A stretch of 50,910 nucleotides of DNA. Origin: Escherichia phage vB_EcoS-95. The stretch lies in sequence record NC_048132.1; one strand, written 5' to 3'. A program made the position numbers and the translations under genes. Below are positions 4,414 to 22,899 of the stretch, piece after piece (positions within the stretch are counted from its first letter, which is position 1; each line of letters begins with the position of its first letter). The notes under the pieces were generated by a model. It was not told where the DNA came from, did no database searches, and saw only the letters and a list, made by a program, of their open reading frames with translations.

Positions 4414-4452
4414 TCAATAACACGAGATGGCTTTTAATAGCGGAGAAATGAA

Positions 4453-5483: not shown

Positions 5484-5509
5484 TATTTCATAGAAACGAA
5501 CGTGAGGAA

Positions 5510-5695
5510 ATGAAAATGGTAGTATATAGCAAGAAAGCATTTGACCAGGCGCAACAAACCGCACGCGAGGCGGTAAAAGGTGGAACGAAAAACAATATGC
5601 AGCTTGATTGGGGCGCTGCAATGATTCTACTTCGCGTTGCATATGGTCACTACCCATTAGAATTTGCGGAGGCATATTATAAGCATGAAGGTTGA
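5510..5695 (+). CDS. Hypothetical protein
   Basis: 61-aa ORF, RBS GAGGAAATG-proximal. Confidence 0.35.
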   Translation: MKMVVYSKKAFDQAQQTAREAVKGGTKNNMQLDWGAAMILLRVAYGHYPLEFAEAYYKHEG

Positions 5696-5927
5696 ACAAG
5701 GAAGAGATGCGGTATGGAATCACGCTAAAGAATGCGGAATAGCCGACGATATAAAGAAGATAGCGCAATACTTTGATATTGCAGATGTGAGCATAATTAG
5801 CGGTGATAAGATGACTTTCCTCAAGGAAAGGCCGCGAAAAATGGTAAGAGTTCCAGCAGTTCCAACAAAAATTGATTTCAAAGAGGCAATGGCTAAAATC
5901 CGAGAGCCTCGCAAATATTATAAATGA
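5685..5927 (+). CDS. Hypothetical protein
   Basis: ORF track 5664-5927 trimmed to internal ATG (MKVEQGRD). Confidence 0.3.
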   Translation: MKVEQGRDAVWNHAKECGIADDIKKIAQYFDIADVSIISGDKMTFLKERPRKMVRVPAVPTKIDFKEAMAKIREPRKYYK

Positions 5928-5931
5928 GGAT

Positions 5932-5992
5932 AGTTATCATGTGGCGCTTGTTTGTTCTACCGTTACCAGTTATCATCGCTGTTACAGTTATG
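5932..5992 (+). repeat. Direct repeats AGTTATCAT (x2) plus AGTTATG upstream of the HTH-phosphoesterase gene; candidate operator
   Basis: AGTTATCAT at about 5932 and 5968, AGTTATG at about 5986, in non-coding leader. Confidence 0.3.
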
Positions 5993-6021
5993 TACCATAT
6001 AGTAATGAGATAGGTAGCAGA

Positions 6022-7137
6022 ATGAAAAATGTAAAAATTACAGATGAGCAATTCAAGATCGAACGGGCGGCAGGTAAGACATATAAACAGATCGCTCAAG
6101 AGTACGGAATGAATGTGAGAAGCGTCGAACGTCGCGCGGCGCGCCTTGCAAAACAAGGACAGCTATCAACCATCGGAGCGCCTGGTTTTGGTGTTCATGG
6201 TGAGTCAGTAATGACTGACAAAGAAGGCAACATAATCCTCAAGTGGACCAAAACCAGCAAGGATAAAGAGCAACTAGAAGCATTAATGCGCGCAGCAATG
6301 GAGGCGTTTAGCGAGGAAGTGCCGCGATTAGATTCAGTTCCATTGCAGGAGCGTGACTATAATGAAACGCTTTCATTGTATCCGATCTTTGACATGCACT
6401 TAGGCGCTATGGCCCATAAGCACGAATGCGGCGAAAATTGGGATACTGCGACGGCGGAGCGCGTTATGAATAACTTTATTGACTATGCTTTGATGTGCGC
6501 ACCGGACAGCGAAAAGGCTGTTATCCTGATTGGTGGCGACATGCTTCATAGCGATGGCCTTGAGGCTGTGACACCTGCAAGCGGTCACGTACTTGATCAA
6601 GATAGCCGATATGCAAAATTGGTTTACGTTGCAATCCGTGCAATGCGTCGCGCAATTAACAAAATGCTGTTAAAGCATAAGCATGTTGAGGTCCAGATCG
6701 TAGAGGGCAATCACGACCAATCAGGAATGATTTGGCTACGCGCAGCAATGGCGGCAGCATATGAGAACGAGCCGCGCGTTTACGTTGATGTTTCTCCTCG
6801 CGTTGTTCACCACACGCAATACGGAAAAACTTTCCTTGCGTACCATCACGGGCACACAGTGCGCAAACCTGAGACTTTGCTAATGATGTGCGCGTCAGAT
6901 TGGCGGGAGGACTTCGGAAACTCAAAAACGATGTATGCGCACGTAGGGCACTGGCATCACCAGACCGTGACGGAAACGTCGCTTGGCATCGTTGAGGTGC
7001 ATAGCACCCTGGCGGCAAAAGACGCATACGCCGCGCGCGGTGGATGGAGATCTCGACGCCGTGCAGCGGTTATCATTTACGACAAAGAGCATGGAGAAGT
7101 TGGGCGATTTGTTCACTATCCAGAAATGATGAATTGA
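6022..7137 (+). CDS. HTH domain fused to calcineurin-like metallophosphoesterase
   Basis: N-terminal HTH (KTYKQIAQEYGMNVRSVERRAARLAKQG); DMH, GGDMLHSD, GNHD, HHGH, GHWHH metallophosphatase signature motifs; start at internal ATG (track start 5872 is TTG). Confidence 0.5.
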   Translation: MKNVKITDEQFKIERAAGKTYKQIAQEYGMNVRSVERRAARLAKQGQLSTIGAPGFGVHGESVMTDKEGNIILKWTKTSKDKEQLEALMRAAMEAFSEEVPRLDSVPLQERDYNETLSLYPIFDMHLGAMAHKHECGENWDTATAERVMNNFIDYALMCAPDSEKAVILIGGDMLHSDGLEAVTPASGHVLDQDSRYAKLVYVAIRAMRRAINKMLLKHKHVEVQIVEGNHDQSGMIWLRAAMAAAYENEPRVYVDVSPRVVHHTQYGKTFLAYHHGHTVRKPETLLMMCASDWREDFGNSKTMYAHVGHWHHQTVTETSLGIVEVHSTLAAKDAYAARGGWRSRRRAAVIIYDKEHGEVGRFVHYPEMMN

Positions 7138-7185
7138 TGAATTTTTATTTAAATCAATGACAAATTAAATCAAAAACTTGCAAAG

Positions 7186-7216
7186 GGGCGGCGTTTGTCG
7201 CCTCTTTTTTTGTTTG
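7186..7216 (+). terminator. Weak rho-independent terminator after the phosphoesterase gene
   Basis: Short GC stem (GGCG..CGCC) followed by TCTTTTTTTGTTTGATTTTTT. Confidence 0.35.
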
Positions 7217-7244
7217 ATTTTTTACCATGTAAGTTTATCATTCG

Positions 7245-7258
7245 GTCAATATATTGAC
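7245..7258. promoter_or_regulatory. Perfect 14-bp palindrome GTCAATATATTGAC upstream of the lysis cassette; candidate operator
   Basis: Self-complementary sequence 24 bp upstream of holin ATG. Confidence 0.4.
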
Positions 7259-7281
7259 TTTAATTAATATGGAGAATAAGA

Positions 7282-7497
7282 ATGAAAGATTTTATTAACG
7301 CAGCTACCGCCGGATCTGGCGGTTCATCTATCGCAAGCGCCGCGACAGGGCAGTTAACCATTGCTATTGCCAGCTTTGTTTTAATGGCTGCATTCGGTGC
7401 ATGGGGCGCTTACCTTCGCTGGCGTGATAGTAAAAAATTCCACGAGGCGATCGAAAATGGTGATATTCAAAAAGCTATTGAAATCAGGGGCAAGTAA
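7282..7497 (+). CDS. Holin (single TMD, 71 aa)
   Basis: Small protein with one hydrophobic helix and charged C-terminus, immediately upstream of endolysin. Confidence 0.55.
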
Positions 7498-7988
7498 TGA
7501 GCATAAAGAACAAGGTAGCGGCTGCGGCATTTGGCGTTGCGGTTGCCTTGACTTCTCCACTTCTTGAAGAGATCGAAGGGGTAAGATACAAGCCATACAA
7601 AGATATTGCGGGAATATGGACGGTTTGCGCAGGAATCACCGGACCAGATGTTATCCTGGGGAAAACGTACACTAAAAAAGAGTGTGATGCTTTGTTGGCT
7701 AAACATATCCAGGTTGCTAAAAAAGAAGTTGACAAGCAGGTTAAGGTTGACATTCCTGATAGTATGCGTGCAGCAATGTACTCATTCACTTATAATGCAG
7801 GTGTGGGAGCTTTCAGAAATTCAACAATGCTGAAACTCATCAACCAGGGGAAATTAAAAGATGCTTGCGATCAGCTTTATCGTTGGACGTATTACCATAA
7901 CCCCAAAACAGGAAGGCGCGAGAAGTCTAAAGGCTTACTTAACAGGCGCAAGGTCGAATACAAATATTGCACAATGGATCTGAAATGA
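7497..7988 (+). CDS. Endolysin (phage lysozyme, GH24-like)
   Basis: [23 protein letters not shown] catalytic-region motif of phage lysozymes; 163 aa. Confidence 0.7.
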
Positions 7989-8380
7989 TGAAGAAATTTT
8001 TACTTACACCAATCGCAATGGCGGTGATCTTGTCTGGATGTTCAAGCGTTACGCCACTGACCGGATTAATCGGCAGTAAGCCGGAAATAACAGCACAGGC
8101 TGGCGCTGAGAACGTGAAGCAGACAGTTGGCATTACAGCAAAGCAGGACGAAAGCACAAAACAGAAAACCACAATAAAGGAATCTGCGGTTGACAAGGTG
8201 GACACGTCCAGCAAGAAGGATTTCACAACATCAACCATTCAGGCCAATACCATCAAGGCAGAAAAAATTCAGGTCGTGCAGGGTAATAACGGCAGATGGT
8301 ACGATCCAATAATCATATGCGTGGTTGTGTTCATTGTGCTGATTTTTCTTTACTGGAGGGAAAAGAAAAAGGAGGCTTAA
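7985..8380 (+). CDS. Unimolecular spanin (u-spanin, T1 gp11-like)
   Basis: N-terminal lipoprotein signal with lipobox LSGC plus C-terminal TMD ([16 protein letters not shown]); start ATGATG overlaps endolysin stop. Confidence 0.6.
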
Positions 8381-8400
8381 TGCCTCCTTTATTTTTATGC
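8361..8400. terminator. Bidirectional rho-independent terminator between the lysis cassette and the convergent minus-strand block
   Basis: Hairpin AGGAGGC-TTAAT-GCCTCCT flanked by A/T runs on both sides. Confidence 0.55.
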
Positions 8401-8619
8401 GTCGGGCCACATATGAGTTTCGTTTGTTGGCTTGTTCGATTCGTCGTACTGCCTTACTTCAATGCTGCAAGTGTCGCCGTACAGTTCTGCAATCTTGCGC
8501 TCATTTTCAACCGCCGATTGCTCACTCCATCCAAAATCCCTGTCGTAAATTGTCGGGATTTCAGCAGAAGATCCGTTGTCATGATTATATACGCGAACTA
8601 CTAAAAACTTTCTGGACAT
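8395..8619 (-). CDS. Hypothetical protein
   Basis: 74-aa ORF; preceded by box promoter and conserved leader. Confidence 0.4.
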   Translation of the reverse strand: MSRKFLVVRVYNHDNGSSAEIPTIYDRDFGWSEQSAVENERKIAELYGDTCSIEVRQYDESNKPTNETHMWPDA

Positions 8620-8655
8620 AATTTTACCTTTTGGTTGTTTCGTTTCGATGAAACA

Positions 8656-8698
8656 AATATACCCGACACTAGGCCGGGCGTTTTAACAAAAAATGCTA
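8656..8698 (-). promoter_or_regulatory. Box promoter (minus strand; -10-like TATATT; leader CATCGAAACGAA)
   Basis: Reverse complement of box at 8680-8698, hairpin GCCCGGCCTAGTGTCGGG, hexamer at family spacing. Confidence 0.55.
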
Positions 8699-8816
8699 TT
8701 CCATACGCTTTACCGTAACCAGTAATACACCATCACCATTGCATAAAACATGTTCAGTGGTGCTAAAAGCGCGCATATCTGAATAAAGTAGCGTAAGTAA
8801 AGCATGAATAAAATCC

Positions 8817-9212
8817 TCATGTGATATTGAATTTACGGCGCAGTGCTTCAAGATCTTGTCTATTAGCTTTTGCCTGGAACAATTCATCATCGCCCATCTC
8901 CCCTATTCTAGCCATATCCCTGATCCAGTCGTTGCGCATACCATCCAGGCTATACAATTCGAATCCGAAAGGCCGCTTTGACGATCCTTTGGACCAGTAT
9001 TTTCCGCAGACCCCATCTATATAGCCAGCCGTCATCATTCTTGCGCAAAATTCCTTAGATGCAAGGCTGGCGAACATTCGCGGCGTAAGTCCGGCGGCCC
9101 GTGCGAGCCGCTCGCATTCTCTATGCTGATAGATAAATTTGGCTATGTGCTGCCTGTTAAACCAGTCGTATGACTCACACCATTTATACAGATCAAGCAA
9201 AAACATAATCAT
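8817..9212 (-). CDS. Hypothetical protein
   Basis: 131-aa ORF overlapping helicase stop (coupled). Confidence 0.4.
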   Translation of the reverse strand: MIMFLLDLYKWCESYDWFNRQHIAKFIYQHRECERLARAAGLTPRMFASLASKEFCARMMTAGYIDGVCGKYWSKGSSKRPFGFELYSLDGMRNDWIRDMARIGEMGDDELFQAKANRQDLEALRRKFNIT

Positions 9213-10789: not shown

Positions 10790-10817
10790 TCGTTAGCTTC
10801 TCCTTTGTGGGCCGTAA

Positions 10818-10860
10818 ATTTTAACGGCCCAATACTACCCCGTTTTGTCAAAAAGTGCTA
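10818..10860 (-). promoter_or_regulatory. Box promoter variant (TAGCACTTTTTGACAAAAC) upstream of SF3 helicase
   Basis: Box overlaps stop TAG of the upstream gene; hairpin GGGCCGTTAAAATTTACGGCCC; -10-like TAAAAT. Confidence 0.5.
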
Positions 10861-11079
10861 TTTGATCCGCTCTATTGCAACCAGAAGTCGATCAGGCTGG
10901 CGGTCGCTGTAGCATTCTCCTGTAATCCCATCCTTAAACGCAAAGTAAAGCGCCTTATGATATGAAAAACCAATCAGCCAACCTACCGCCGTTTTTTTGA
11001 TGGGCCTGACTATATCGCCAGGCTTGAAAGTCTTTGTGGTAGAATGCGTTACTTTGTAACGGTTTTCACTGTTTATCAC
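10858..11079 (-). CDS. Hypothetical protein
   Basis: 73-aa ORF. Confidence 0.35.
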   Translation of the reverse strand: MINSENRYKVTHSTTKTFKPGDIVRPIKKTAVGWLIGFSYHKALYFAFKDGITGECYSDRQPDRLLVAIERIK

Positions 11080-11462: not shown

Positions 11463-11491
11463 GATCAGATCTCCTTTGTTTGTTCGATGTG

Positions 11492-11534
11492 ATTATGCCA
11501 GGTTTTTACACCTGGCTTTTAACAAAAAGTGCTA
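11492..11534 (-). promoter_or_regulatory. Box promoter (minus; hairpin GCCAGGTGTAAAAACCTGGC; CATAAT; leader CACATCGAACAAAC)
   Basis: Box overlaps stop TAG of the methyltransferase-like gene. Confidence 0.55.
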
Positions 11535-12242
11535 TTTTGAGTTTGACTCAAAGACGGCGCGAGCAAATCCGCGCGGAGTGAGTGAGCGGATCATCTTTGT
11601 GCGCGATGACTTACCGCCAGTTTTGGCCCAGCCTGGATTATCTTTGTCTTCCTCTTTCGGCAGGATTAAAGCGCGCGGAGGAATAACAAAGCCGTTGCCA
11701 GTCCAGAGGCACGTTTTCTTAAAATAGCGATCCCGCGCCGGAATAATATCAGGGAAGTCGGGATGTTTATCATCTTCCGGCAGATAGCCAGCGTAATCGC
11801 ACGGATGGAACGTATAATCAGGCTTTCGCCATAACGTTGACAACTTGCCAACCGGATTTTCGATCATGTAAGGAACACCGAAATAATCAGCTATATCAGC
11901 CGCGATTCTGCAAGTGTCGGCGGCCTCATCCTGGAACGATGGATTCTCAAGGCGTTTTTTGGCCCAATGGCGAGATCCGCTATTTGCAAGGTCGGTGCAC
12001 GGCGGAAATGCCATAATAAAGTCAGGAATGCCCCATTCCTCCCAGCGCGCGCGGTGGTAAAATCTTTCATCAATCCAGACGTTAACGTATTCGATATTCT
12101 CATGCTGTATGCGCACTGACTGGTAATCACCGTGATCGCCACCGTCAGCATTAAAGCAAATGCACTTATAGCCATTATCAGCCCAATCTTTAACGGCTTT
12201 ACCAGATCCATCAAATAGTGAGAATATTAAACCTTTATACAT
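11532..12242 (-). CDS. Compact DNA C5-cytosine methyltransferase-like protein (atypical PCT catalytic motif)
   Basis: Motif I LFDGSG, motif IV FPPCTDLANSGS (PCT instead of PCQ), motif VI ENPVG, C-terminal RSLTPRGFARAVF (motif X-like); about 236 aa with no obvious target-recognition domain. Confidence 0.45.
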   Translation of the reverse strand: MYKGLIFSLFDGSGKAVKDWADNGYKCICFNADGGDHGDYQSVRIQHENIEYVNVWIDERFYHRARWEEWGIPDFIMAFPPCTDLANSGSRHWAKKRLENPSFQDEAADTCRIAADIADYFGVPYMIENPVGKLSTLWRKPDYTFHPCDYAGYLPEDDKHPDFPDIIPARDRYFKKTCLWTGNGFVIPPRALILPKEEDKDNPGWAKTGGKSSRTKMIRSLTPRGFARAVFESNSK

Positions 12243-12252
12243 CGTCATTACC

Positions 12253-12590: not shown

Positions 12591-12632
12591 TTTTCACCTC
12601 GTTTAAAAGGCGGCAAAACGCCGCCAGATTAA

Positions 12633-12860: not shown

Positions 12861-12968
12861 TTAAATATCCTCAATTGAAATATGAATGACGTGGCGCTCT
12901 TTTTCCGTCGCCGCCGTAATGGTCATTTGCAACCGCCACCATCCAGGCGTTTTTGAAAATAAATAGCC

Positions 12969-13181
12969 TCATTTCTTATTTTTCAGCTTAAATTTATGAC
13001 CTGGAACACCAGCGCCAATATAGCCATCGTTGTATTCCATCAAATAAAGGTGAAGACCATTATCTGAAATTACATGAGGATCTTCTTTGAGATTTCCCAT
13101 TAGTGGATATTCTTTTCCGCGCGTAAATCTCCAAGTTGAGTTATAAGTTTCTACGCATTTAAGTTTTAATTGCTTTGCCAT
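12969..13181 (-). CDS. Hypothetical protein
   Basis: 70-aa ORF. Confidence 0.35.
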   Translation of the reverse strand: MAKQLKLKCVETYNSTWRFTRGKEYPLMGNLKEDPHVISDNGLHLYLMEYNDGYIGAGVPGHKFKLKNKK

Positions 13182-13462
13182 TATGCGATCCCAGTTACGT
13201 TAAAACTTACAGCCTTTGTTGCGCTAAATACATAAGCATCAACAGCGCCGCCAAATACACGAATTTTACCCTGGCCGTACTGCGCATTCATATTTCGCCA
13301 AACCGTTCTATTAGAGCAGAATGCGCTACCAGTCTTAATGAGCGTATCCATCTCTTTTCTTAGATCGCGATAGTCCATCCAGAATCTAAATGCACGCTGT
13401 TTAATTCGCGCCGCCTTGATTTTTTCTCTTGCGCTATTGAAATCATTCTTTTCGTATGCCAT
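13181..13462 (-). CDS. Hypothetical protein
   Basis: 93-aa ORF, start overlaps upstream stop. Confidence 0.35.
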   Translation of the reverse strand: MAYEKNDFNSAREKIKAARIKQRAFRFWMDYRDLRKEMDTLIKTGSAFCSNRTVWRNMNAQYGQGKIRVFGGAVDAYVFSATKAVSFNVTGIA

Positions 13463-13659
13463 TAAATGATCTCCATGTATGTTTCAAAGCCATTTAACTT
13501 GAACAGGCCGTTTTCACATTTGCGCACGTTCCAAGTTAGACCTGAGTGGTACGCCTCCATATCATCAAGGTCAATGGTGATTTCAGCGCCTTTCTTAAAC
13601 AAACCTTTTTCGTGAGACTTGTCGCGCTTAACAACTTTAACATCAACCTGATTTTCCAT
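13462..13659 (-). CDS. Hypothetical protein
   Basis: Trimmed to MENQVDVKV (RBS GAGGAT) from track 13462-13710. Confidence 0.4.
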   Translation of the reverse strand: MENQVDVKVVKRDKSHEKGLFKKGAEITIDLDDMEAYHSGLTWNVRKCENGLFKLNGFETYMEII

Positions 13660-13690
13660 CTTTAAATCCTCGCTTGTTGTCGATGGGTGT

Positions 13691-13733
13691 AATATACCAT
13701 TCAGGCGCACATCGTTTTTAACAAAAAGTGCTA
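13691..13733 (-). promoter_or_regulatory. Box promoter (minus; -10-like TATATT; leader CATCGACAACAA)
   Basis: Box overlaps stop TAG of upstream gene; fixed spacing to hexamer. Confidence 0.55.
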
Positions 13734-14021
13734 TTCAACAACTTTTCCAGTTAAAGAGATAAGTTGCCTTGTAATCTTGTGGCGGCGATACTTACGCGCA
13801 ACAACAGGAAGGCTTTCACCGCTTTGATGACCAAAACAGATCGGCAATTCACCTTCAAGGGAGCGGAAGCCACCAAATTCAAGATCCCGCACTGGCTTAG
13901 CGCGCCAGGCTTCAATAAATCCGCGCTCGTCACGAGTGATATAGCGGTATATGTTCGGGAGGGGCAATTGTATCCCCTCAAAATCCACGGTATCGGTATA
14001 GCTATAAAACTTAGAACTCAT
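13731..14021 (-). CDS. Hypothetical protein
   Basis: Trimmed to MSSKFYSY (RBS GGAG) from track 13731-14072. Confidence 0.4.
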   Translation of the reverse strand: MSSKFYSYTDTVDFEGIQLPLPNIYRYITRDERGFIEAWRAKPVRDLEFGGFRSLEGELPICFGHQSGESLPVVARKYRRHKITRQLISLTGKVVE

Positions 14022-14163
14022 AGTCAACAACTCCAAACTCATTGACGATTTGCGCCTTATAGAAGCCACCATTTTTCGCCAGGTTGTAACAAGCGGCTAC
14101 GGTTTCAAATTCGCGCGATTCCGGCTGGCTGTTTTCGTGTTCCCAGGTAATCAGAGTAACCAT
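14011..14163 (-). CDS. Small hypothetical protein (50 aa), not in ORF track
   Basis: ATG preceded by GCGAGGA; MVTLITWEHENSQPESREFETVAACYNLAKNGGFYKAQIVNEFGVVDYEF; overlaps next start. Confidence 0.35.
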   Translation of the reverse strand: MVTLITWEHENSQPESREFETVAACYNLAKNGGFYKAQIVNEFGVVDYEF

Positions 14164-14196
14164 TTTCAAATCCTCGCATTCGTTGTCGATGCGTGT

Positions 14197-14239
14197 AATG
14201 TACAGGAATGCGAGGATTGAGTTTTAACAAAAAGTGCCA
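14197..14239 (-). promoter_or_regulatory. Box promoter (minus; variant TGGCAC; -10-like TACATT; leader CATCGACAACGAA inside a 12-bp inverted repeat that includes the RBS)
   Basis: ATCCTCGCATTC ... GAATGCGAGGAT inverted repeat spans hexamer, leader and RBS. Confidence 0.55.
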
Positions 14240-14240
14240 T

Positions 14241-14504
14241 TTAGTCCAGGAATTCGATTTCACGCTCTCCAGTTAACGGATCCACAAGCCAGAATCCGAG
14301 CGGTTCGCCGTGAACACCTTCATAGAATCCAAGCGCCGCCAGATCTTCACCTTTAACAAATACCAGGTTTCCGCTACGGCTTACGTGAGACACGTTAACG
14401 ATAACCGGAAATGTGCGATCCTTAAATGCAGGCCGCAGGGCGTAACATCCGTTGTTTAGCAAACGTGCTTTGCGCTTAACTGGAATAGGTGCATTAATTT
14501 TCAT
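14241..14504 (-). CDS. Hypothetical protein
   Basis: 87-aa ORF. Confidence 0.4.
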   Translation of the reverse strand: MKINAPIPVKRKARLLNNGCYALRPAFKDRTFPVIVNVSHVSRSGNLVFVKGEDLAALGFYEGVHGEPLGFWLVDPLTGEREIEFLD

Positions 14505-14516
14505 GGTTATTACTCC

Positions 14517-14729: not shown

Positions 14730-14730
14730 T

Positions 14731-14940: not shown

Positions 14941-15194
14941 TTTTTCTTCTCCTGCAATAAGCAAACATCATTGATAAAATCAGCACGGCCCTTAATGTTG
15001 CTGATGTGGAACGTCTTTTCAGCGTACAGGCCATCACCTTCAATCACGATCATTACGCGAGTCGGTTTATTCACGGGCGCACACGAAAAGAGTGGGCGCA
15101 CCGGAAGAAATTTAGTCATCACATCCAGGTTGGCCCTGGCGGCCCTGCAAAACGCCTCCGCCAGATCCAAATCATTTTCGGTAATCACCGCCAT
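14928..15194 (-). CDS. Hypothetical protein, paralog of 14731-14940
   Basis: RBS GAGGAG; GRADFINDVC motif shared with downstream neighbour. Confidence 0.4.
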   Translation of the reverse strand: MAVITENDLDLAEAFCRAARANLDVMTKFLPVRPLFSCAPVNKPTRVMIVIEGDGLYAEKTFHISNIKGRADFINDVCLLQEKKKCWM

Positions 15195-15466
15195 TACTTC
15201 TTGATCTCCTCACTGATAAATTTCAGCACCTGACGCAAGAAAACCTCGTTGTTGATAGTCGCTGGCAATTCTTCTTTCACTTCTTGCGGCAGATAGATAT
15301 TGCCGTGCCAGGTCAAGCAATCGTAGTTGATACGATAAGAGCAAAGCCACTCGCAATCGTTATCTGCTTCCCAAATGCAGAGTTGCAGAACATCGCCAAA
15401 ATCTTCAACAGTCAGATCCAGACCGTGACGCTTGGCGAAATTGAAAGTGGTTTTGCTGATGTTCAT
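15194..15466 (-). CDS. Hypothetical protein (first gene of the leftward block)
   Basis: 90-aa ORF with RBS AGGAG. Confidence 0.45.
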   Translation of the reverse strand: MNISKTTFNFAKRHGLDLTVEDFGDVLQLCIWEADNDCEWLCSYRINYDCLTWHGNIYLPQEVKEELPATINNEVFLRQVLKFISEEIKK

Positions 15467-15500
15467 TGCTATCTCCTGAGCGGTTCGTTTCGATGTGTGT

Positions 15501-15543
15501 AATGTACCCGATCAGACGGCCTGAGTTTTAACAAAAAGTGCTA
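15501..15543 (-). promoter_or_regulatory. Box promoter (minus; -10-like TACATT; leader CATCGAAACGAA)
   Basis: Exact reverse-complement box at 15525-15543. Confidence 0.55.
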
Positions 15544-15544
15544 T

Positions 15545-16099
15545 TTGACGGTTAGCGCCAGGATTGCGATCGAAATAATCAAAAGTAATCATTCGTAATC
15601 AAATCACGTCAAAATGATGATTGCCTTTGCAAATTTGATGAGAAAAGCAATCACGTTTAATCATTGGTTGCAGGGGAGATAGTGAAACCCTCCCCTCTCG
15701 CCTCACTTTTCCGCCTGGCTGTCAGTGGTTGTTGTCTTTTGTTCACCCCTGTTACCGATTTCAGGCGGCGTGTTTCCGCGCGGTTTTCCGGTGTAGCGAA
15801 AACGGAAAAAACAAAGAAAATCCTCTATAATACATTGAAAATAAAGATTATTTATTTATATATATCTATAATGTTTTCTTTTTGTTCTCACTGTTACAGT
15901 GCTTTTTGTTGGTTATGGTGTGGTTGTGTGTGGGCATATATGGATAGTTGCGCGCGCGGCGGATTGCATATGTATATATACTTTTTCCGGCGGATTGCGT
16001 TAACAGCGTGAACAGAAAAATAACAGCCGCGAAATCAATAACTTGCGCATGATTTTGTAGTTTTTCGATATTGGTAACGTTTTGAATACAACAAAAACA
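15545..16099. promoter_or_regulatory. AT-rich non-coding strand-switch region with AATCA-type short repeats, inverted repeats and a duplicated GGCGGATTGC element; candidate origin and control region
   Basis: No convincing ORF; TAATCA repeats 15570-15660; GGCGGATTGC twice about 32 bp apart flanking ATATGTATATATAC; T/G-rich tract TTATTTATTTAT...GTTGGTTATGGTGTGG. Confidence 0.4.
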
Positions 16100-16127
16100 T
16101 TGACACGCACCAAATAGCTTTTATAAT
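16100..16127 (+). promoter_or_regulatory. Near-consensus sigma70 promoter (TTGACA-16 bp-TATAAT) for rightward early transcription
   Basis: TTGACA at 16100-16105 and TATAAT at 16122-16127. Confidence 0.6.
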
Positions 16128-16158
16128 GCGCAAACAGTCAACAACTGGAGGAAAGGAA

Positions 16159-16623
16159 ATGGAACAGAAAACCACTAAGGACTATTGCGATTGGCTTCGC
16201 GAGCTTGGTCGCCGCCTGGCTAGTGGCGATATTGAAGAGTATAAAATGTCACTAATTGACCTGGCCGGAATGTTAAGCGGTGATGACTGCTACAAGATCA
16301 CGCGCAGTTCATCCTACAGCCGGACCATTATCAACCGCGTTCCAGAAGTAAGGGCCGCAGGTCGGGTAAGCATCAAGGTAGAGGAAACGGAAGATGATAA
16401 ATTTTACGTTTTCCGCATGGTCCGCGAATCGAAAAGGAAAATCATCACACCCGAAGAATTGCCAGCCATCAAGGCAAGGGCGATCAAAAAGTTTGCCGAT
16501 CGCTTACTGGCAGCAATCCCGAACATCGTGGACATGGAAGGGGATAAACTGGCTGGAGCTTGTGAGGGCGTAAGCCGCTACCAGGATATGATCCGCGAAA
16601 TCATCAAAGAGGAGGAGCAATAA
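16159..16623 (+). CDS. Hypothetical early protein (first gene downstream of the consensus promoter)
   Basis: Start at MEQKTTKDY with RBS GGAGG; 154 aa. Confidence 0.5.
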   Translation: MEQKTTKDYCDWLRELGRRLASGDIEEYKMSLIDLAGMLSGDDCYKITRSSSYSRTIINRVPEVRAAGRVSIKVEETEDDKFYVFRMVRESKRKIITPEELPAIKARAIKKFADRLLAAIPNIVDMEGDKLAGACEGVSRYQDMIREIIKEEEQ

Positions 16624-16883
16624 TGAAAAAGGCATTAATCGGCGTTTTGGCGGCAATGACACTCCTGACCGGATGCGAAAAGGCATCAGAATCAACGGTT
16701 GTCGTAGGCGTTGAGTCAGATTTCAAAGTCGGCCGCCTGTTCACTGTTGACGGATGCACAGCATACAGATTCTATGATAACGGTCGCGCGATCTATTACA
16801 CCAGTTGCAAAGGCGCAACGGATAGCACATACAACAGCGGAAAGAACGTAATGCACCAGCAAGTCACAACAGATATTAAATAG
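16623..16883 (+). CDS. Putative lipoprotein
   Basis: Signal peptide with lipobox LLTGC; 86 aa. Confidence 0.5.
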   Translation: MKKALIGVLAAMTLLTGCEKASESTVVVGVESDFKVGRLFTVDGCTAYRFYDNGRAIYYTSCKGATDSTYNSGKNVMHQQVTTDIK

Positions 16884-16923
16884 CACTTTTTGTTAAAACG
16901 CCAGGCGCAAAGCCTGGCATAAT
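16881..16923 (+). promoter_or_regulatory. Box promoter (hairpin GCCAGGCGCAAAGCCTGGC; CATAAT; leader CATCGAAACGAG)
   Basis: Exact box overlapping stop TAG. Confidence 0.6.
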
Positions 16924-16955
16924 AGCCTCATCGAAACGAGATTGAGTAAACAAAA

Positions 16956-17141
16956 ATGGCACGTCGCATCACCAAAGACCTTAAAGTCCTGAACAAAGAA
17001 AACGTAGTTAAAATCCTGGTTATCTGGGGCTACAACGAAGAAACAGCAAAGCAGAAGGTAGAGGCGGGTTATGACCTGGCTGTAAAAGCAATGCCAAACG
17101 ACGACGCCAAAGGCATTGCAAACTATGTAGCTTTCTTTTAA
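16956..17141 (+). CDS. Hypothetical protein
   Basis: 61-aa ORF. Confidence 0.4.
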   Translation: MARRITKDLKVLNKENVVKILVIWGYNEETAKQKVEAGYDLAVKAMPNDDAKGIANYVAFF

Positions 17142-17156
17142 TTAGCAGGTGAATAA

Positions 17157-17342
17157 ATGAAAACGAAATTAGTCCATAAATCAGAAATCAAGATCGGCGA
17201 TACTGTGATTCACAACGGAGAGCTTAGAACGGTTGGCAAAGAGTCAATAAGCCACGATGAATTTATGGGGATCTTGTTGTTCGGCGACTCTTATCGTCTT
17301 GGTTACAAGATGGTTGAGCTTGTGGAAGAAGTGAAATTCTAA
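17157..17342 (+). CDS. Hypothetical protein
   Basis: 61-aa ORF. Confidence 0.4.
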   Translation: MKTKLVHKSEIKIGDTVIHNGELRTVGKESISHDEFMGILLFGDSYRLGYKMVELVEEVKF

Positions 17343-17343
17343 A

Positions 17344-17386
17344 TAGCACTTTTTGTTAAAACTCAAAAACGATAACCAGGCATAAT
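17344..17386 (+). promoter_or_regulatory. Box promoter (CATAAT at 17381-17386)
   Basis: Exact box one base after stop TAA. Confidence 0.6.
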
Positions 17387-17441
17387 AAATCACATAGGGC
17401 GGCACGGCGTCGCCCAGTTAAACCAATCAGGAGAAAGCACC

Positions 17442-18335
17442 ATGTTAAAACTTGCTGACATTAAATTCCCGATCACCTTCGAATCTCGCGGCATTGGTCA
17501 TTACATTTTTACCGATGAAAAAACATGCCATAAGGTTGATATGAATAGCGACAAACTAAGCCCATCAACAATGGAGATTGAACACTTTATTGATGCACAC
17601 AATACGCACTACAACGCCCTTAAAGACTATGGCTATGCAATGCCAGGCTACACATGTTTGCACTACAAGCCATATAAGGGCCAGGTGTTACCAGTTCGCT
17701 CACCGGAACGCGCAGAGATTCCGATGGTCAATATGAAAACCTGCGACTACAAAAAGCTGTGGTGCTTAAGTGTGGATAATATCAAGTATCCGATCACGTT
17801 CCACACGACTGGTAAGTCAACGATTCGCTACACATCGCGCGACAATGGCGTTTATAGCGATGGTACGAAATCAGAGTTGAAAGTTGATTTCTTTGTCAAC
17901 GGTCACAACAAATTCAATCCGCACAACGAAGAGGATAAAGTGTACTACGTGGAAGACATTACAAAACACTTGTTTGGAGAAACTCCATTCGGCGGCGGAA
18001 AGACGTCAATTCAAAAAATCATTGGCGAGGAGATCCACAAAGCGGTCGCCGAAATGAAAGCGCCTGGAGGCTGGCGTATTGATAAGAGCGCCTTTGCAAA
18101 TCAAGAAATCGTAACGCAGGGCGCGATTGAAGATATGCCAGTTGCAGCCACGCTAAAAGGAGTCAGGCTTGATGACGGCACCTGGTATGAATTAACGGCT
18201 ACACCAAAGACGATCGAAATTCATGATGATGTTGTTATTCTCCTACTCCACTACGGCGGCACTAAAAACCGGACTGTTGCGGGTGAGATCAGCATCAAGC
18301 GCGGAACGATGGTTAAGTGGAAGGTGAAGATTTGA
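17442..18335 (+). CDS. Hypothetical protein with internal tandem duplication
   Basis: DIKFPITFESRGIGHYIFTDEK repeated as NIKYPITFHTTGKSTIRYTSRD; 297 aa. Confidence 0.5.
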   Translation: MLKLADIKFPITFESRGIGHYIFTDEKTCHKVDMNSDKLSPSTMEIEHFIDAHNTHYNALKDYGYAMPGYTCLHYKPYKGQVLPVRSPERAEIPMVNMKTCDYKKLWCLSVDNIKYPITFHTTGKSTIRYTSRDNGVYSDGTKSELKVDFFVNGHNKFNPHNEEDKVYYVEDITKHLFGETPFGGGKTSIQKIIGEEIHKAVAEMKAPGGWRIDKSAFANQEIVTQGAIEDMPVAATLKGVRLDDGTWYELTATPKTIEIHDDVVILLLHYGGTKNRTVAGEISIKRGTMVKWKVKI

Positions 18336-18561
18336 GTTTGCTCACTGCGGCGCACGTCGCCGCATGGATCGGATTGTTTGCCTACCTGTTTAGCTTTTAT
18401 TGAGGTGAGAGATGACTACCTGGATTTTGCTGATTCTTATGATTGATGGCGGCGTTGACCATATCGAAATGAATAGCCAGCAATCTTGCATTGAGGCACG
18501 AGAGCAGATCAAGAACAACAACAGGTTTTATGTGTACACTCACACGCTATGTATTAAGAAA

Positions 18562-18603
18562 TAGCACTTTTTGTTAAAACTCAAATTTGGGGCCAGGTAT
18601 AAT
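18562..18603 (+). promoter_or_regulatory. Box promoter (hairpin GGGGCCAGG..GGCCC with TATAAT)
   Basis: Exact box overlapping stop of a small upstream ORF. Confidence 0.55.
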
Positions 18604-18633
18604 GGCCCTGCTTTCAACGAAGGAGATAAAACG

Positions 18634-18852
18634 ATGTACATTAAAAAGAAGATGAAATGCATTTCCGTTAACTATGCTTGCTCTGGCATGTTCAAGCCTG
18701 GCGAAATCTATACGGCGCAAAAACTGAAATCATCAACCGGATCTTTTTACGTGAGCAATAGTAAGGGGCATCGCATGTTCCTGAACGGCGGCGAAGGCAC
18801 TAAGGTTATGGCACACGCTATGGTAATGGCTGAATTTGAGGAGGTGAAATAA
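18634..18852 (+). CDS. Hypothetical protein, paralog of 18852-19097
   Basis: Start at MYIKKK (RBS AAGGAG); shared C-terminal motif FLNGGEGT...AEFEEV. Confidence 0.45.
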   Translation: MYIKKKMKCISVNYACSGMFKPGEIYTAQKLKSSTGSFYVSNSKGHRMFLNGGEGTKVMAHAMVMAEFEEVK

Positions 18853-19097
18853 TGATCATTGAAAACAACTTTCTTTGCGTTAAGAGCAATCGACCATTCT
18901 TCACGCCTGGCAAGGTGTACCAGGGCAAGAAGGACACAAGAGATGGTCACTCTTATCATGTTCACTGCAACAACGGATACAAGTTTTACCTTAACGGCGA
19001 GAATGGAACTGAGATCGTTGCGTTTGAAAACGTAGTTGCCGAGTTTGAGCAGGTTACAGACGCGGAATTTGAGGAAGTGAAAGATGAAAACAAATAA
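18852..19097 (+). CDS. Hypothetical protein, paralog of 18634-18852
   Basis: YLNGENGTEIVAFENVVAEFEQV; start overlaps upstream stop (ATGA). Confidence 0.45.
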   Translation: MIIENNFLCVKSNRPFFTPGKVYQGKKDTRDGHSYHVHCNNGYKFYLNGENGTEIVAFENVVAEFEQVTDAEFEEVKDENK

Positions 19098-19305
19098 GCG
19101 CGTCAAGTACAGGTTTACTGATAACCACGGCGACGCGATTGATGTATACAAGTTCGGCGATCGCGTGTTTATTGATGGCACGTTTGAAGGTGGGCGTAGG
19201 CCGGATTTTAGGTCGATACTTACCGTTGACCAAGTGCGCAAGCTGGCAGATAAGTTAAATGATCTGGCAGATGAAATAGAATACAAGCAAATACATTTTA
19301 ATTGA
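19084..19305 (+). CDS. Hypothetical protein
   Basis: 73-aa ORF. Confidence 0.35.
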   Translation: MKTNKRVKYRFTDNHGDAIDVYKFGDRVFIDGTFEGGRRPDFRSILTVDQVRKLADKLNDLADEIEYKQIHFN

Positions 19306-19316
19306 TAGGTTTGATA

Positions 19317-20027
19317 ATGAAAAAATACACTTTCGAACTGTGGGGCAAGAAGTACGAATTAATCACCAGCAAGCCGATTGTTATCGTTGACCTGGACGGC
19401 ACACTATCGGACGGATCGCATCGTTTGCACTTGCTGCCAACTGAAAACTTGCACCTTACGGAATCTTGGCGCGAGTTTAACAGGTCCGCCGCCGGAGATT
19501 CACCTATTAAAAGCACGATCGCGGTTATTAACGGTTTGTGGGTGTCTGGATTTGCCATCGTCATCTTGACCGGACGCAGCGACGAGGTTCGCTATGAAAC
19601 CTGCAAATGGTTGAATGAGAACGGCGTGAAGTTTGACGAAATCATCATGCGCCGCCAGGAGGACAACCGAAAGGATACGGTTATTAAAGAAGAAGCCTTG
19701 CGCGCTATTGGCCTGGACAACATTGTTTGCGCCTTTGACGATTCGCCGAACGTGGTTAAGCACTTCCGCAGCTTGGGGATCACAACCTATCAGGTCACGG
19801 AATACGACAAGCCACACGCTCACATACAATCTCACGGCGTGGAATCAATCAAGATAACGAAGCGCGCCCGATTCGTTGGCAGCAAAGATAGCCTTGTCAA
19901 TGCCAGCTTTACCAGAGGAATAGCATATGACGTTGTTTCTTATCATGACAAGAGTTTTATAGTTCATGATGATTCTGGATGCGCATGGTCATTCAATCAT
20001 AGTGACGGCGATTTTGTTAATGCGTAA
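19317..20027 (+). CDS. HAD-superfamily phosphatase (nucleotidase or polynucleotide 3'-phosphatase-like)
   Basis: HAD motif I VIVDLDGTLSDG; later FDDSP motif; start at MKKYTFELW. Confidence 0.5.
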   Translation: MKKYTFELWGKKYELITSKPIVIVDLDGTLSDGSHRLHLLPTENLHLTESWREFNRSAAGDSPIKSTIAVINGLWVSGFAIVILTGRSDEVRYETCKWLNENGVKFDEIIMRRQEDNRKDTVIKEEALRAIGLDNIVCAFDDSPNVVKHFRSLGITTYQVTEYDKPHAHIQSHGVESIKITKRARFVGSKDSLVNASFTRGIAYDVVSYHDKSFIVHDDSGCAWSFNHSDGDFVNA

Positions 20028-20070
20028 TAGCACTTTTTGTTAAAACATCTCAACGGGCTTGCGGTATAGT
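20028..20070 (+). promoter_or_regulatory. Box promoter (hairpin GGGCTTGCGGTATAGTAAGCCC; -10-like TATAGT; leader CATCAACAACAAACGAGGA)
   Basis: Exact box directly after stop TAA. Confidence 0.6.
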
Positions 20071-20101
20071 AAGCCCATCAACAACAAACGAGGATTAAAT
20101 C

Positions 20102-20365
20102 ATGGCTAACAAGATCGAATTTTTTAAAGCGGTAGACATTATTGATGGCGCGCCTAGCTTCTTTGCGATCCATTCTATTGACGGCAAGGATATTGGGTAC
20201 AACGTTATCCGTCGAGATGGAATATCAAAACTTAGTGACCTGGTAGGCCATATTGTGTCAATCGGGAAATGCGCATGGCCCGATTCGCCACGAGAGCCGC
20301 GCCGCCGCGACATGATTAATCCTGAATTGCTTTACACGCTGGTAGTAGAGGGAGAAAATAAATGA
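20102..20365 (+). CDS. Hypothetical protein
   Basis: 87-aa ORF. Confidence 0.4.
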   Translation: MANKIEFFKAVDIIDGAPSFFAIHSIDGKDIGYNVIRRDGISKLSDLVGHIVSIGKCAWPDSPREPRRRDMINPELLYTLVVEGENK

Positions 20366-20547
20366 TTTGGTTACTTGCTTTTTTGGTTGTTTTTCTTTAC
20401 ATTTCAGGCTTGTTTACGTTCCGCGCGTTGGTGAAATATTCTGACGCGACAGACAAAGACGATAAAATCGTTCTCGCTTTCTGGTTTGTTTGGGTGTGGT
20501 TAGCAATTTACGAGATCATCAGAGACAAACAGAAATTTGAGTGGTGA
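20362..20547 (+). CDS. Small membrane protein (two predicted TMDs)
   Basis: MIWLLAFLVVFLYISGLFTF ... LAFWFVWVWLAIY hydrophobic segments. Confidence 0.4.
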   Translation: MIWLLAFLVVFLYISGLFTFRALVKYSDATDKDDKIVLAFWFVWVWLAIYEIIRDKQKFEW

Positions 20548-20604
20548 TTCTTGCTATGGCGCATTCATGCAGTGCGCCATGTTGAGAAAACCTAAAGGGG
20601 GGAA

Positions 20605-20748
20605 ATGATGCGTAACTTTGAAAAAATCATTACCAAAAAGAAGCGTCGCGGGTACGATGAGCATGTGGAGTTTGTGAACAAGCAGCGCAAGAAGCGCCAT
20701 AGACGCGAAATGCTGCATAATATCAACTCACGCTATGGAGGAAACTAA
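20605..20748 (+). CDS. Small basic protein (47 aa), not in ORF track
   Basis: ATG preceded by GGGGGGAA; Lys/Arg-rich (KKKRRGY...KQRKKRHRRE). Confidence 0.3.
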   Translation: MMRNFEKIITKKKRRGYDEHVEFVNKQRKKRHRREMLHNINSRYGGN

Positions 20749-20940
20749 ATGCAATTGCCACCATTTAACGAAAAAAGCGAAGAGATTGCCAAAACTGCAT
20801 GTCACCTTCGAGAGCTTGCCGACATGATAGAGCGCGGTCAGGTTATGATTGTCAATATGACGATTAAAAGCGAGAATAGAAATTTCAAGGTTTTAAGCGA
20901 GACAACAGAAATTACTGTGTTGAAAGCAATGGGAGAATAA
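20749..20940 (+). CDS. Hypothetical protein
   Basis: 63-aa ORF with RBS GGAGG. Confidence 0.4.
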   Translation: MQLPPFNEKSEEIAKTACHLRELADMIERGQVMIVNMTIKSENRNFKVLSETTEITVLKAMGE

Positions 20941-20942
20941 TC

Positions 20943-21533
20943 ATGAAACGAGACATTATTATCCTTAATGGGCCGCCTGGCTGTGGAAAGGACACTATTG
21001 CAGCTTACCTAACGGGCCATCGTTACCCAGCGGTTAAGGCGTCATTCAAACAGCCGATGTTCGATATTGCGTTTTCCATGCTGGGCGTGTACCGATACGA
21101 TGAATTTATGGACCTGTACAACGACCGAGAACAAAAAGAAAAGCCTCAAGTTATTTTGGGCGGCAAGTCACCTCGACAATTCATGATCTGGATTAGCGAG
21201 GATGTAATGAAGCCAGTTTTTGGAGATCACTATTTCGGGCGTCGAATGGTTGAAGAGATTCACGAGATGTACCGAGATTTGGCGGTTGTGATCAGTGATG
21301 GCGGATTCCCCGAAGAAATCAAGCCGCTGGTTAAGGCAGGGCATGAAGTGCATATTTGCAGATTGCATCGCGACGGCTTCACGTTTGCTGGCGATTCGAG
21401 AGACTACATTGACCTGAGCGGTTATCACTATCGAATCCATCACTATGATTTCCACTTGCAGGACGGCAAGCCAGATCTGGCTGTAAACGAGATCGTCAAT
21501 ACGGTCAAATGGAAGCACACACAGATTAAATAG
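20943..21533 (+). CDS. P-loop kinase, deoxynucleoside monophosphate kinase-like
   Basis: N-terminal Walker A ILNGPPGCGKDT resembling phage dNMP kinases; 196 aa. Confidence 0.45.
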   Translation: MKRDIIILNGPPGCGKDTIAAYLTGHRYPAVKASFKQPMFDIAFSMLGVYRYDEFMDLYNDREQKEKPQVILGGKSPRQFMIWISEDVMKPVFGDHYFGRRMVEEIHEMYRDLAVVISDGGFPEEIKPLVKAGHEVHICRLHRDGFTFAGDSRDYIDLSGYHYRIHHYDFHLQDGKPDLAVNEIVNTVKWKHTQIK

Positions 21534-21573
21534 CACGAATTGCTAAACGCGGGGTTATCGGCCCCGCTATAAT
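21531..21573 (+). promoter_or_regulatory. Box promoter variant (TAGCACGAATTGCTAAAC; hairpin CGGGGTTATCGGCCCCG; TATAAT)
   Basis: Box overlaps stop TAG; leader CACATCAACAATCAAGAGG. Confidence 0.5.
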
Positions 21574-21603
21574 GCTCACATCAACAATCAAGAGGAAATC
21601 ACA

Positions 21604-22867: not shown

Positions 22868-22899
22868 GCCCTTATTGAAGCGAAACAGAGGAAAGCGCA

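Follow-up and report, generated by a model that had tools for sequence, protein, structure and literature searches.

A repeated intergenic cassette in phage vB_EcoS-95

We analyzed a 50,910-nt stretch of DNA from Escherichia phage vB_EcoS-95 (NC_048132.1; this whole stretch is called the window below), in which a short motif, CATCGAAACGAA, recurs as part of a repeated intergenic cassette. Between positions 5000 and 15000, the window is 97 to 98% identical to the Escherichia phages JLBYU26, tonijn, and tiwna and belongs to a T1-like coliphage; tonijn is classified in the Drexlerviridae, Tempevirinae, Warwickvirus. The region containing the motif covers genes of DNA metabolism and lysis as well as two clusters of small early open reading frames (ORFs) that run divergently. 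The leftward cluster ends at about 15544, and the rightward cluster starts at about 16100. Neither Rfam families nor tRNAs were found in the window.

The window contains 16 copies of a cassette of ~100 nt, and the motif lies at a fixed register in 8 of them. Positions within a cassette are given relative to a predicted transcription start (+1) 7 nt after the -10 element; in these coordinates, the motif occupies -1 to +11. The cassette begins with a 21-nt box, AATAGCACnnnTTGnTAAAAC, at -51 to -31, whose form in the window is (A)ATAGCAyTTTTTGTTAAAAC (20 to 21 nt) and which occurs there in 16 copies with at most 3 mismatches, against 0 expected. The box is followed by an 18-nt spacer of variable sequence, which usually contains one (5') arm of a hairpin. 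Next come a -10 element that has G at -14, a discriminator of 5 nt, and the motif; the Shine-Dalgarno sequence follows near +14 and the ATG near +27. The -10-like hexamers adjacent to the motif were CATAAT, TATATT, TACATT, and TATAGT.

Most of the boxes (14 of 16) are co-oriented with an ORF that starts at +23 to +50, and the other two are antisense within the structural region. The first base of the box lies at -50 and the ATG mostly at +23 to +34, which places them 73 to 84 nt apart; in the cassette at 17343, the ATG is at +50. The start of the box usually coincides in part with the stop codon of the gene before it (TAA-TAG-CAC; for example, at 4367-4372, 5437-5442, and 14238-14243), and the cassette therefore fills the entire intergenic space from stop codon to ATG.

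On the + strand, copies of the motif were found at 5489-5500 (CATAGAAACGAA, matching the consensus at 11 of 12 positions), 16929-16940 (CATCGAAACGAG, 11/12), and 20076-20087 (CATCAACAACAA, 8/12). Copies on the - strand share that strand with the genes they precede. They include two perfect copies of the consensus (8639-8650 and 15484-15495, each 12/12), CATCGACAACAA at 13674-13685 (9/12), and CATCGACAACGA at 14180-14191, which is the consensus plus one inserted C. A degenerate copy, CATCGAACAAAC, lies at about 11478-11489 (-), shifted 3 nt upstream. An earlier sequence-only reading of this DNA had listed copies of a shared leader 5 nt downstream of -10-like hexamers. Every copy it listed exists, and the 5-nt distance applies to those at the standard register. 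The copy that it placed in the 13660s is really the one at 13674-13685, about 10 nt away, and the one in the 11480s, although present, is the degenerate and displaced copy.

We compared these copies with chance expectation in several ways. A random 12-mer of the window matches the consensus at 8 or more of 12 positions with P = 0.0039, which gives a binomial P of 6e-16 for the 8 of 16 cassettes that reach this level at -1 to +11. Matches at 11 or more of 12 positions number four in the whole window, and all four lie at -1 to +11 of a cassette. The degenerate-base (IUPAC) pattern of the sequence-only reading, with at most one mismatch, gave 7 matches against 2.5 expected, a count that was reached in 0 of 100 shuffles; a shorter pattern by itself was not significant (6 matches against 5 expected). 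The motif in the window is confirmed as real, and the register test is the decisive one.

Conservation and anchoring of the motif across T1-like phages

To follow the motif beyond the window, we used the fetched genomes together with a pattern scan of IMG/VR, which yielded 388 unique cassettes; their 124 source sequences include T1, Henu8, and a Webervirus. T1, which falls in another subfamily and whose genes are only ~65 to 70% identical to those of the window, has the same box, letter for letter, and the motif downstream of it (CCCATCGACAACGAACGAGGA and TTTCATAGAAACGAAATGAGGAA are examples); box and motif were also found together in Henu8 and the Webervirus. The idea that the leader is conserved as an initially transcribed segment was thus borne out far outside the window, at the predicted start. 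In a logo of 293 cassettes, the consensus from -1 reads C A T C G A A A C G A A, with 0.45 to 1.3 bits per motif position except for G+9 (0.22), and T makes up at most 8% over +4 to +12. Most spacer positions hold at most 0.3 bits.

As a control for shared ancestry, we kept one cassette per lineage, with spacers sharing fewer than 10 of 18 bases, and obtained 41 lineages. Among these lineages, whose spacers are unrelated and carry ~0 bits by construction, the motif retained ~7 bits over -1 to +11 (0.3 to 1.4 per position; C-1, 0.86; A+1, 1.41; C+3, 0.57; A+6, 0.61; A+7, 1.11; A+10, 0.77). The cassette upstream of the 50-amino-acid ORF MVTLITWEHEN... shows the same at a single gene: in 14 phages, the motif was kept in all, and the spacers could not be aligned.

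The Shine-Dalgarno sequence starts at +14 in a plurality of cassettes (92/269), with a range of about +10 to +22, and this variation separates the two registers to which the motif might be tied. In 62 dereplicated cassettes whose Shine-Dalgarno sequence is not at +14, the motif matched at 8 or more of 12 positions in 32 cassettes when placed by the -10 element and in 5 when placed by the Shine-Dalgarno sequence, with mean matches of 7.4 and 4.05, respectively. The motif is locked to the -10 element and start site, not to the geometry of the Shine-Dalgarno sequence. It grades continuously from perfect to absent across cassettes, and neither the box subtype (defined by a central TTT, GAA, or AAA) nor the class and position of the hairpin was associated with it. 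The transcripts that would begin at +1 are predicted to be nearly free of structure, with a mean minimum free energy (MFE) over +1 to +25 of -0.8 kcal/mol.

The individual cassettes of the window

The cassettes that carry the motif vary in hairpin and hexamer. The cassette at 5440-5500 (+) has its box at 5440-5459, the hairpin GCCCGGC/GTCGGGC, a -10 CATAAT, and +1 at 5490; our cassette script placed its ATG at 5516, and the ORF table starts the ORF at 5510. At 8639-8699 (-), the box (8680-8699) is followed by a terminator-like spacer hairpin at 8661-8679, a -10 TATATT, +1 at 8649, and an ATG at 8619. The cassette at 13674-13734 (-) has its box at 13715-13734, a -10 TATATT, +1 at 13684, and an ATG at 13659, and that at 14180-14240 (-) has its box at 14221-14240, a -10 TACATT, +1 at 14190, a Shine-Dalgarno GAGG at +16 to +19, and an ATG at 14163 (+28). 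The first cassette in the leftward early cluster, 15484-15544 (-), consists of a box at 15525-15544, a -10 TACATT, +1 at 15494, and an ATG at 15466. At 16880-16940 (+), the box (16880-16899) precedes the hairpin GCCAGGC/GCCTGGC, a -10 CATAAT, +1 at 16930, and an ATG at 16956. At 20027-20087 (+), the box is at 20027-20046, the hairpin GGGCTT/AAGCCC flanks the -10 TATAGT, +1 is at 20077, and the ATG is at 20102.

In other cassettes, the start region is looser. The degenerate copy CATCGAACAAAC belongs to the cassette at 11475-11535 (-), with its box at 11516-11535, the hairpin CCAGGT/ACCTGG, and a -10 CATAAT. The cassette at 22824-22884 (+) has its box at 22824-22843, the hairpin AAGGGCA/TGCCCTT flanking a -10 TAAAGT, an ATG at 22900, and the start region TATTGAAGCGAA (9/12), and that at 18561-18621 (+) has a -10 TATAAT at a spacing of 17, the hairpin GGGCCA/TGGCCC around the -10, and the start region GCTTTCAACGAA (7/12).

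Several cassettes lack the motif. These include a box with a -10 TATTAT upstream of the helicase gene (1881-1941, +); a box with the hairpin GGCGCGAT/ATTGCGCC and a -10 CATAAT upstream of the Dam methylase gene (4370-4430, +); and the box variant TTGACAAAAC with the hairpin GGGCCGT/ACGGCCC around a -10 TAAAAT upstream of the second helicase gene (10801-10861, -). The cassette at 17343-17403 (+) also lacks the motif and has another leader, CACATAGGGCGGCACGGCGTCGCCC (17393-17441), with a 5' stem-loop and a 50-nt untranslated region. The CACATAGGGCGGCACGGCGTCGCCC leader also replaces the CATCGAAACGAA start region in two cassettes of Henu8 (locus L003), at 3841 and 4378.

The two antisense copies lie in the structural region. 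At 31829-31889 (-), a box (31870-31889) and a weak -10 run antisense to structural genes, with neither a downstream ORF nor the motif. At 35580-35640 (-), a box (35621-35640) and a -10 TAGATT run antisense to tail genes; about 15 nt past the predicted start lies the hairpin GGGGCG-CAA-CGCCCC followed by UUGUUUU, a predicted bidirectional terminator, so that this cassette would yield an antisense RNA of ~35 to 40 nt. Antisense pairs of box and -10 occur at conserved places in three phages: the window, T1 (locus L002; boxes at 15067-15086 and 18831-18850, both -), and Henu8 (locus L003; boxes starting at 17285 and 21045, both -).

Spacer hairpins

Directly after the box, at -30 to -16, 50 to 74% of cassettes have the 5' arm of a hairpin, whose 3' arm lies either inside the spacer (-18 to -12) or across the -10 element (-9 to -1). 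In the window, hairpins within the spacer were found in the cassettes whose boxes start at 5440, 16880, and 11535, and hairpins across the -10 in those starting at 20027, 22824, and 10861. The sequences of the arms are wholly different between cassettes, and the pairing is retained. Folding of -31 to +2 in the 41 independent lineages gave a mean z of -1.8, with z below -2 in 41%. Covariation at fixed register between spacer and downstream columns was not significant (best z of 3.8 over 1,650 column pairs); because the register of the hairpin varies, its support consists of per-sequence folding energy only. Lying upstream of the start, the spacer hairpins would be present only in read-through RNA or in DNA.

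Two hairpins of the window, 5460-5478 and 8661-8679, passed a scan for terminator-like structures, and the hairpins flanking the -10 have no U tract. In the GenBank record of T1, spacer hairpins are annotated as rho-independent terminators and no promoters are annotated. The annotated terminator hairpins of T1 include those at 38973-39001, 39998-40024, 41980-42007, and 35930-35971.

An inverted repeat over the cassette at 14180-14240

The sequence-only reading had also described a 12-bp inverted repeat at 14164-14220 that could occlude the ribosome-binding site in the mRNA. This repeat is real and slightly longer than described: its arms, 14169-14181 and 14206-14218, are 13 nt long, 100% complementary, and 24 nt apart, and form the longest perfect nonoverlapping inverted repeat in the window. 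Together they enclose the -10 TACATT, the start, and the leader. On the transcribed strand (-), the 5' arm, AATCCTCGCATTC (14206-14218), lies at -28 to -16, inside the promoter spacer and upstream of the predicted start, and the 3' arm, GAATGCGAGGATT (14169-14181), lies at +10 to +22 and holds the Shine-Dalgarno GAGG. A 96-nt read-through RNA was predicted to fold with an MFE of -21.5 kcal/mol (z of -3.1) and with the Shine-Dalgarno sequence paired (GAGGAU). For the RNA from +1, the MFE was -3.5 kcal/mol (z of +1.5), weaker than for 194 of 200 shuffles. Because the 5' arm is upstream of the start, the mRNA of the promoter itself would include the 3' arm alone, and the prediction for it is an unstructured RNA. 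Occlusion of the ribosome-binding site therefore holds, as a predicted fold, for read-through RNA but not for the promoter's own mRNA. On these models, the repeat can mask the Shine-Dalgarno sequence only in read-through RNA from upstream cassettes, leaving it free in the cassette's own transcript.

The repeat is carried by the window, tonijn, tiwna, Sip, herni, Henu8, vB_EcoP_06, A112a, and three IMG/VR contigs; it is a clade-specific add-on restricted to relatives in Warwickvirus and Hanrivervirus. Among the ~11 carriers, the anti-Shine-Dalgarno half AATCCTCGC is constant, and several carriers have a C-to-T change that keeps a U.G pair. Mismatches occur at the loop-proximal end of the stem in vB_EcoP_06 and A112a. 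Covariation across related phages, which had been proposed as a check on the repeat, did not come out in its favor, with single-sided changes only and no compensatory pairs. In other genera, the cassette of the corresponding gene has spacer hairpins of the ordinary kind in place of the repeat. Masking of the Shine-Dalgarno sequence by upstream sequence was not enriched across the family (28/269 cassettes, compared with 26 to 33 when the upstream sequence was shuffled).

The arrangement recalls the T4 genes e, soc, 49, and I-TevI, in which a hairpin at the ribosome-binding site contains an internal promoter, so that read-through RNA is masked and promoter-proximal RNA is open (PMC3014915). As in T4 gene e (PMC3014915), the 5' strand of the stem that pairs with the Shine-Dalgarno sequence lies upstream of a promoter inside the hairpin; here, both fold and start are predicted. 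In T4, the two classes of transcript are temporally distinct, from early and late promoters, and the effect was measured as ~100-fold for gene e (PMC3014915). In the phage studied here, unlike T4, the upstream and internal promoters are cassettes of the same type (boxes starting at 15544 and 14240) and would not form separate temporal classes. The gene that would be masked by the repeat is the 50-amino-acid ORF of unknown function.

Two further observations belong with these results. An 18-nt inverted repeat of 83% complementarity (5301-5318/5355-5372) lies inside or at the end of the ORF at 5183-5440, just upstream of the cassette at 5440. Further, ~20 records labeled "Campylobacter phage" match the window, including MG065685, MG065657, and MG065669. 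The one fetched, A112a (marked UNVERIFIED), falls in Hanrivervirus and shares 93% identity with the present coliphage in the cassette, which suggests contamination or wrong host assignment.

Predicted promoter features of the cassettes

The spacing between box and -10 is exactly 18 nt in 301 of the 388 unique cassettes. Without any filter for a -10, these 388 cassettes have G-14 in 82%, A-11 in 83%, T-7 in 84%, C-1 in 69%, and A+1 in 77%, and 333 of them have a Shine-Dalgarno sequence and start codon within 60 nt downstream. When we checked for an extended -10, G-14 was found in 82 to 90%, but T-15 was found in only 42%. The box itself carries ~35 bits. By inspection alone, it fits neither the sequence nor the spacing of a sigma-32, sigma-28, sigma-24, CRP/FNR, or IHF site. 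No alternative -10 appeared 17 nt downstream of the hexamer TTG(T/C)TA, which lies 22 nt from the -10.

A protein that reads the box was sought among the phage genes. The gene at 1393-1869 (-) encodes a conserved helix-turn-helix regulator (phrog_2856) with only weak matches of the Cro/YdaS type, and the ORFs that open the early clusters are DUFs or have no matches, so none of these was accepted as the box-binding protein. A "sigma-70 region 4" label in phage BUCT705 is on a gene at the phosphoesterase position and looks misannotated. The regulator gene has a near-consensus sigma-70-like promoter, TTTAAA-17-TATAAT (1920-1948, -), which overlaps the helicase cassette at 1881 and points in the opposite direction. 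Another promoter sequence, which matches the sigma-70 consensus at every position (TTGACA-16-TATAAT, 12/12), lies at 16100-16127 (+), directly upstream of the ORF at 16126-16623 (DUF7174); in the divergent region between the cassette-driven early clusters, it is a candidate immediate-early promoter.

Comparison with known systems

The box has been described before, in phage TLS, which has 18 intergenic 21-nt repeats with the consensus aaATAGCACnnnTTGnTAAAA (German et al. 2024, PMC11447400). In that paper, the repeats are oriented with transcription, lie ~76 nt upstream of start codons, and occur also in T1, Rtp, and Rogue1; they are treated as isolated elements that might be stoperators, enhancer sites, or UP elements, their function is listed as an open question, and only three sigma-70-like promoters are reported (PMC11447400). 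The boxes of the window agree with the TLS repeat in consensus, intergenic orientation, and distance, and are the same element. We did not find the fixed 18-nt distance from box to -10 with G-14, the spacer hairpins, or the conserved start region described in the excerpts of PMC11447400 or in other T1-like genome papers, a set that did not extend to the older T1 and Rtp genome papers. Literature searches with the box as a sequence string returned nothing useful. Thus, the box was already published in 2024, and the fixed -10, the hairpins, and the conserved start region are features that we did not find described in these sources.

In architecture, the cassettes resemble the PeSLs of the T4-type phages RB49/phi1, PST, and nt-1, repeated intergenic elements of ~100 nt that combine an early promoter with a stem-loop of a G run and a C run (Arbiol 2010, PMC2839356; Comeau 2014, PMC4122927). 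Like the T1-like cassettes, PeSLs place a stem-loop over the -10 or between it and the upstream element, terminate in a Shine-Dalgarno sequence and ATG, border small ORFs of unknown function, and lie at the boundaries of indels and replacements (PMC2839356, PMC4122927). PeSLs also mediate modular shuffling. In contrast, PeSLs belong to the T4-type family, differ in sequence, and have a consensus sigma-70 -35 and -10, whereas T1-like cassettes have the 21-nt box 18 nt from the -10. The passages on PeSLs in these papers mention no conserved start region, and they report measured terminator and promoter activity for PeSLs. The T1-like cassettes are thus PeSL-like in architecture only, by analogy and not by membership.

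Cassettes also border differences in gene content between T1-like phages. In Henu8, the cassettes at 3841 and 4378 flank two extra genes at the place where the window has the single cassette at 17343. Indels of genes and cassettes between the window and Henu8 that are bounded by cassettes include 17327-17407, 12861-13666, and 8396-8694, which are examples and not a genome-wide statistic. BEK7, slyngel, and swan01 lack the two genes between the cassettes whose boxes start at 14240 and 13734, and the junction in BEK7 is a mosaic of both cassettes, in which the inverted repeat survives as its 3' arm only.

The start region itself resembles two T7 promoters. At the annotated start of T7 A1, a C is followed by ATCGAGAGGGA (CATCGAGAGGGA), which matches the T1-family consensus at 9 of 12 positions in the same register, and at that of T7 A3, a C is followed by ATGAAACGACA (CATGAAACGACA), which is the consensus with a 1-nt gap. 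Both share C-1/A+1 and a purine-rich, U-poor beginning with the T1-like cassettes; they are strong early promoters for the host polymerase, with a canonical -35 and -10 and without the 21-nt box. The likeness extends over few bases and could reflect convergence toward sequences at which the Escherichia coli polymerase starts, and from which it escapes, well. Work from the Bujard and Hsu laboratories reportedly showed that downstream transcribed sequence modulates the strength of T5 and T7 promoters.

A proposed start-region role for the motif and its alternatives

We favor, with a probability of about 0.5, the reading that CATCGAAACGAA is the predicted transcription start (C-1, A+1) together with the first ~11 transcribed bases of a tripartite T1-like promoter cassette and that it acts in initiation or promoter escape. 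The analysis shows the anatomy, conservation, and anchoring of the cassettes and their predicted folds; we infer that they are active promoters and that their transcripts begin at this A, and any effect on escape or translation is likewise inferred. The lock on the -10, as opposed to the Shine-Dalgarno sequence, places the role of the motif most likely at or right after initiation. In the proposed mechanism, T1-like phages would place the cassettes ahead of many early and DNA-metabolism genes, and the motif would fix the start at a pyrimidine-purine step. It would also yield an A-rich, U-poor, structure-free initial transcript, which may favor rapid initial synthesis and promoter escape by the host RNA polymerase, and it would incidentally leave a short, open, U-poor leader before the ribosome site. 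C-1/A+1, 7 nt past the -10, conforms to the pyrimidine-purine preference by which bacterial RNA polymerase normally chooses its start, and the other positions of the motif have no such general explanation.

Several points weigh against this reading. The cassettes have no canonical -35 element, with TTG(T/C)TA 22 nt from the -10 and none at 16 to 18 nt, and a generic sigma-70 scan misses them, so that recognition by unaided host polymerase is an assumption. We found no start-site or transcriptome data for the T1 family in the literature. About 40% of cassettes lack a good motif, which is therefore not required for cassette function, and the likeness to T7 is based on two promoters. A role in the stability of the RNA 5' end or in protein binding could equally be anchored at the start, and because cassettes recombine with each other, part of their similarity could be concerted evolution.

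Among the alternatives, we regard it as possible, though less likely, that the motif acts as RNA, as an A/C-rich, U-poor open leader that aids ribosome loading or protects against 5'-end-dependent decay or RNase E. The leader is only ~26 nt long, has its Shine-Dalgarno sequence most often at +14, is poor in T over +4 to +12, and lies in transcripts nearly without predicted structure, all of which would suit such a role, as would the anchoring at the start. But the motif does not follow the Shine-Dalgarno sequence when its spacing shifts from +10 to +22, a purely compositional need would not keep the specific C+3, G+4, and C+8, and no Rfam family matched. Rather unlikely, in our view, is the proposal that the box, -10, and start region form a Drexlerviridae-specific promoter class for which plain sigma-70 holoenzyme would not suffice, in which a factor (phage, injected, or host) replaces recognition of the -35 and the start motif is a second recognition or switch site on DNA or nascent RNA. 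We know of no sigma factor, RNA polymerase, or MotA/AsiA-like genes in Drexlerviridae. The motif as an operator, at which a phage or host protein binds DNA at +1 to +11 or the nascent RNA and switches early cassettes off, or on later, perhaps together with a reader of the box, is unlikely. A conserved block of ~12 nt over the start is the classic position for a repressor, the information in the box exceeds what RNA polymerase contacts usually need, the phage encodes the helix-turn-helix regulator at 1393-1869 (-), and a motif in a subset of cassettes could define a regulon. However, the motif has no dyad symmetry and only ~7 bits, it is graded continuously rather than falling into two classes, it shows no tie to box subtype or hairpin class, and its likeness to the start regions of T7 A1 and A3 points to polymerase rather than to a T1-specific factor.

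The motif might also be functionless, its similarity kept by recombination between cassettes (PeSL-like shuffling or gene conversion) with the leader hitchhiking on the box and -10. The cassette-flanked indels that separate the window from Henu8 are in keeping with this, as is the two-cassette mosaic of BEK7, whose crossover lies in or near the motif. We nevertheless consider it improbable as the whole explanation: the 18-nt spacers between the conserved blocks are unrelated, and conversion tracts would have to skip the spacer each time; the motif persists across subfamilies; and its profile is position specific, with nearly invariant A+1 and A+7. Least probable of all, and to our minds very improbable, is the proposal of the sequence-only reading that the repeat at 14164-14220 folds in the mRNA of its own promoter, sequesters the ribosome-binding site, and gives control at the RNA level. 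The perfect 13-nt arms, the Shine-Dalgarno sequence in the 3' arm, and the conserved anti-Shine-Dalgarno half with its U.G-compatible changes speak for it. The position of the 5' arm, upstream of the -10 and outside the transcript started there, speaks against it, as do an own transcript less structured than its shuffles, the absence of compensatory double substitutions, the loop-proximal pairs lost in vB_EcoP_06 and A112a, and the ordinary spacer hairpins at the same gene in other genera.

Implications for T1-like phages

By itself, the finding reveals no new mechanism. If recognition of the cassettes did depend on a dedicated factor, a classic phage family would prove to take over the host polymerase in a new way. 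Genome papers on T1-like phages list only a handful of sigma-70-like promoters. Under the favored start-region reading, the published question of what the 21-nt repeat does becomes a testable model, in which the repeat would be the upstream element of a promoter that has a fixed -10, a definite start, and a conserved first stretch of transcript and is packaged with a hairpin as a mobile expression cassette. Across hundreds of Drexlerviridae genomes, the model predicts where transcription of a large part of the early and DNA-metabolism genes starts. For the study of promoter escape, the cassettes would also offer naturally occurring variants of the start region in a promoter that is otherwise constant, and they would carry PeSL-like modular shuffling beyond T4-type myoviruses into an unrelated family of siphoviruses.

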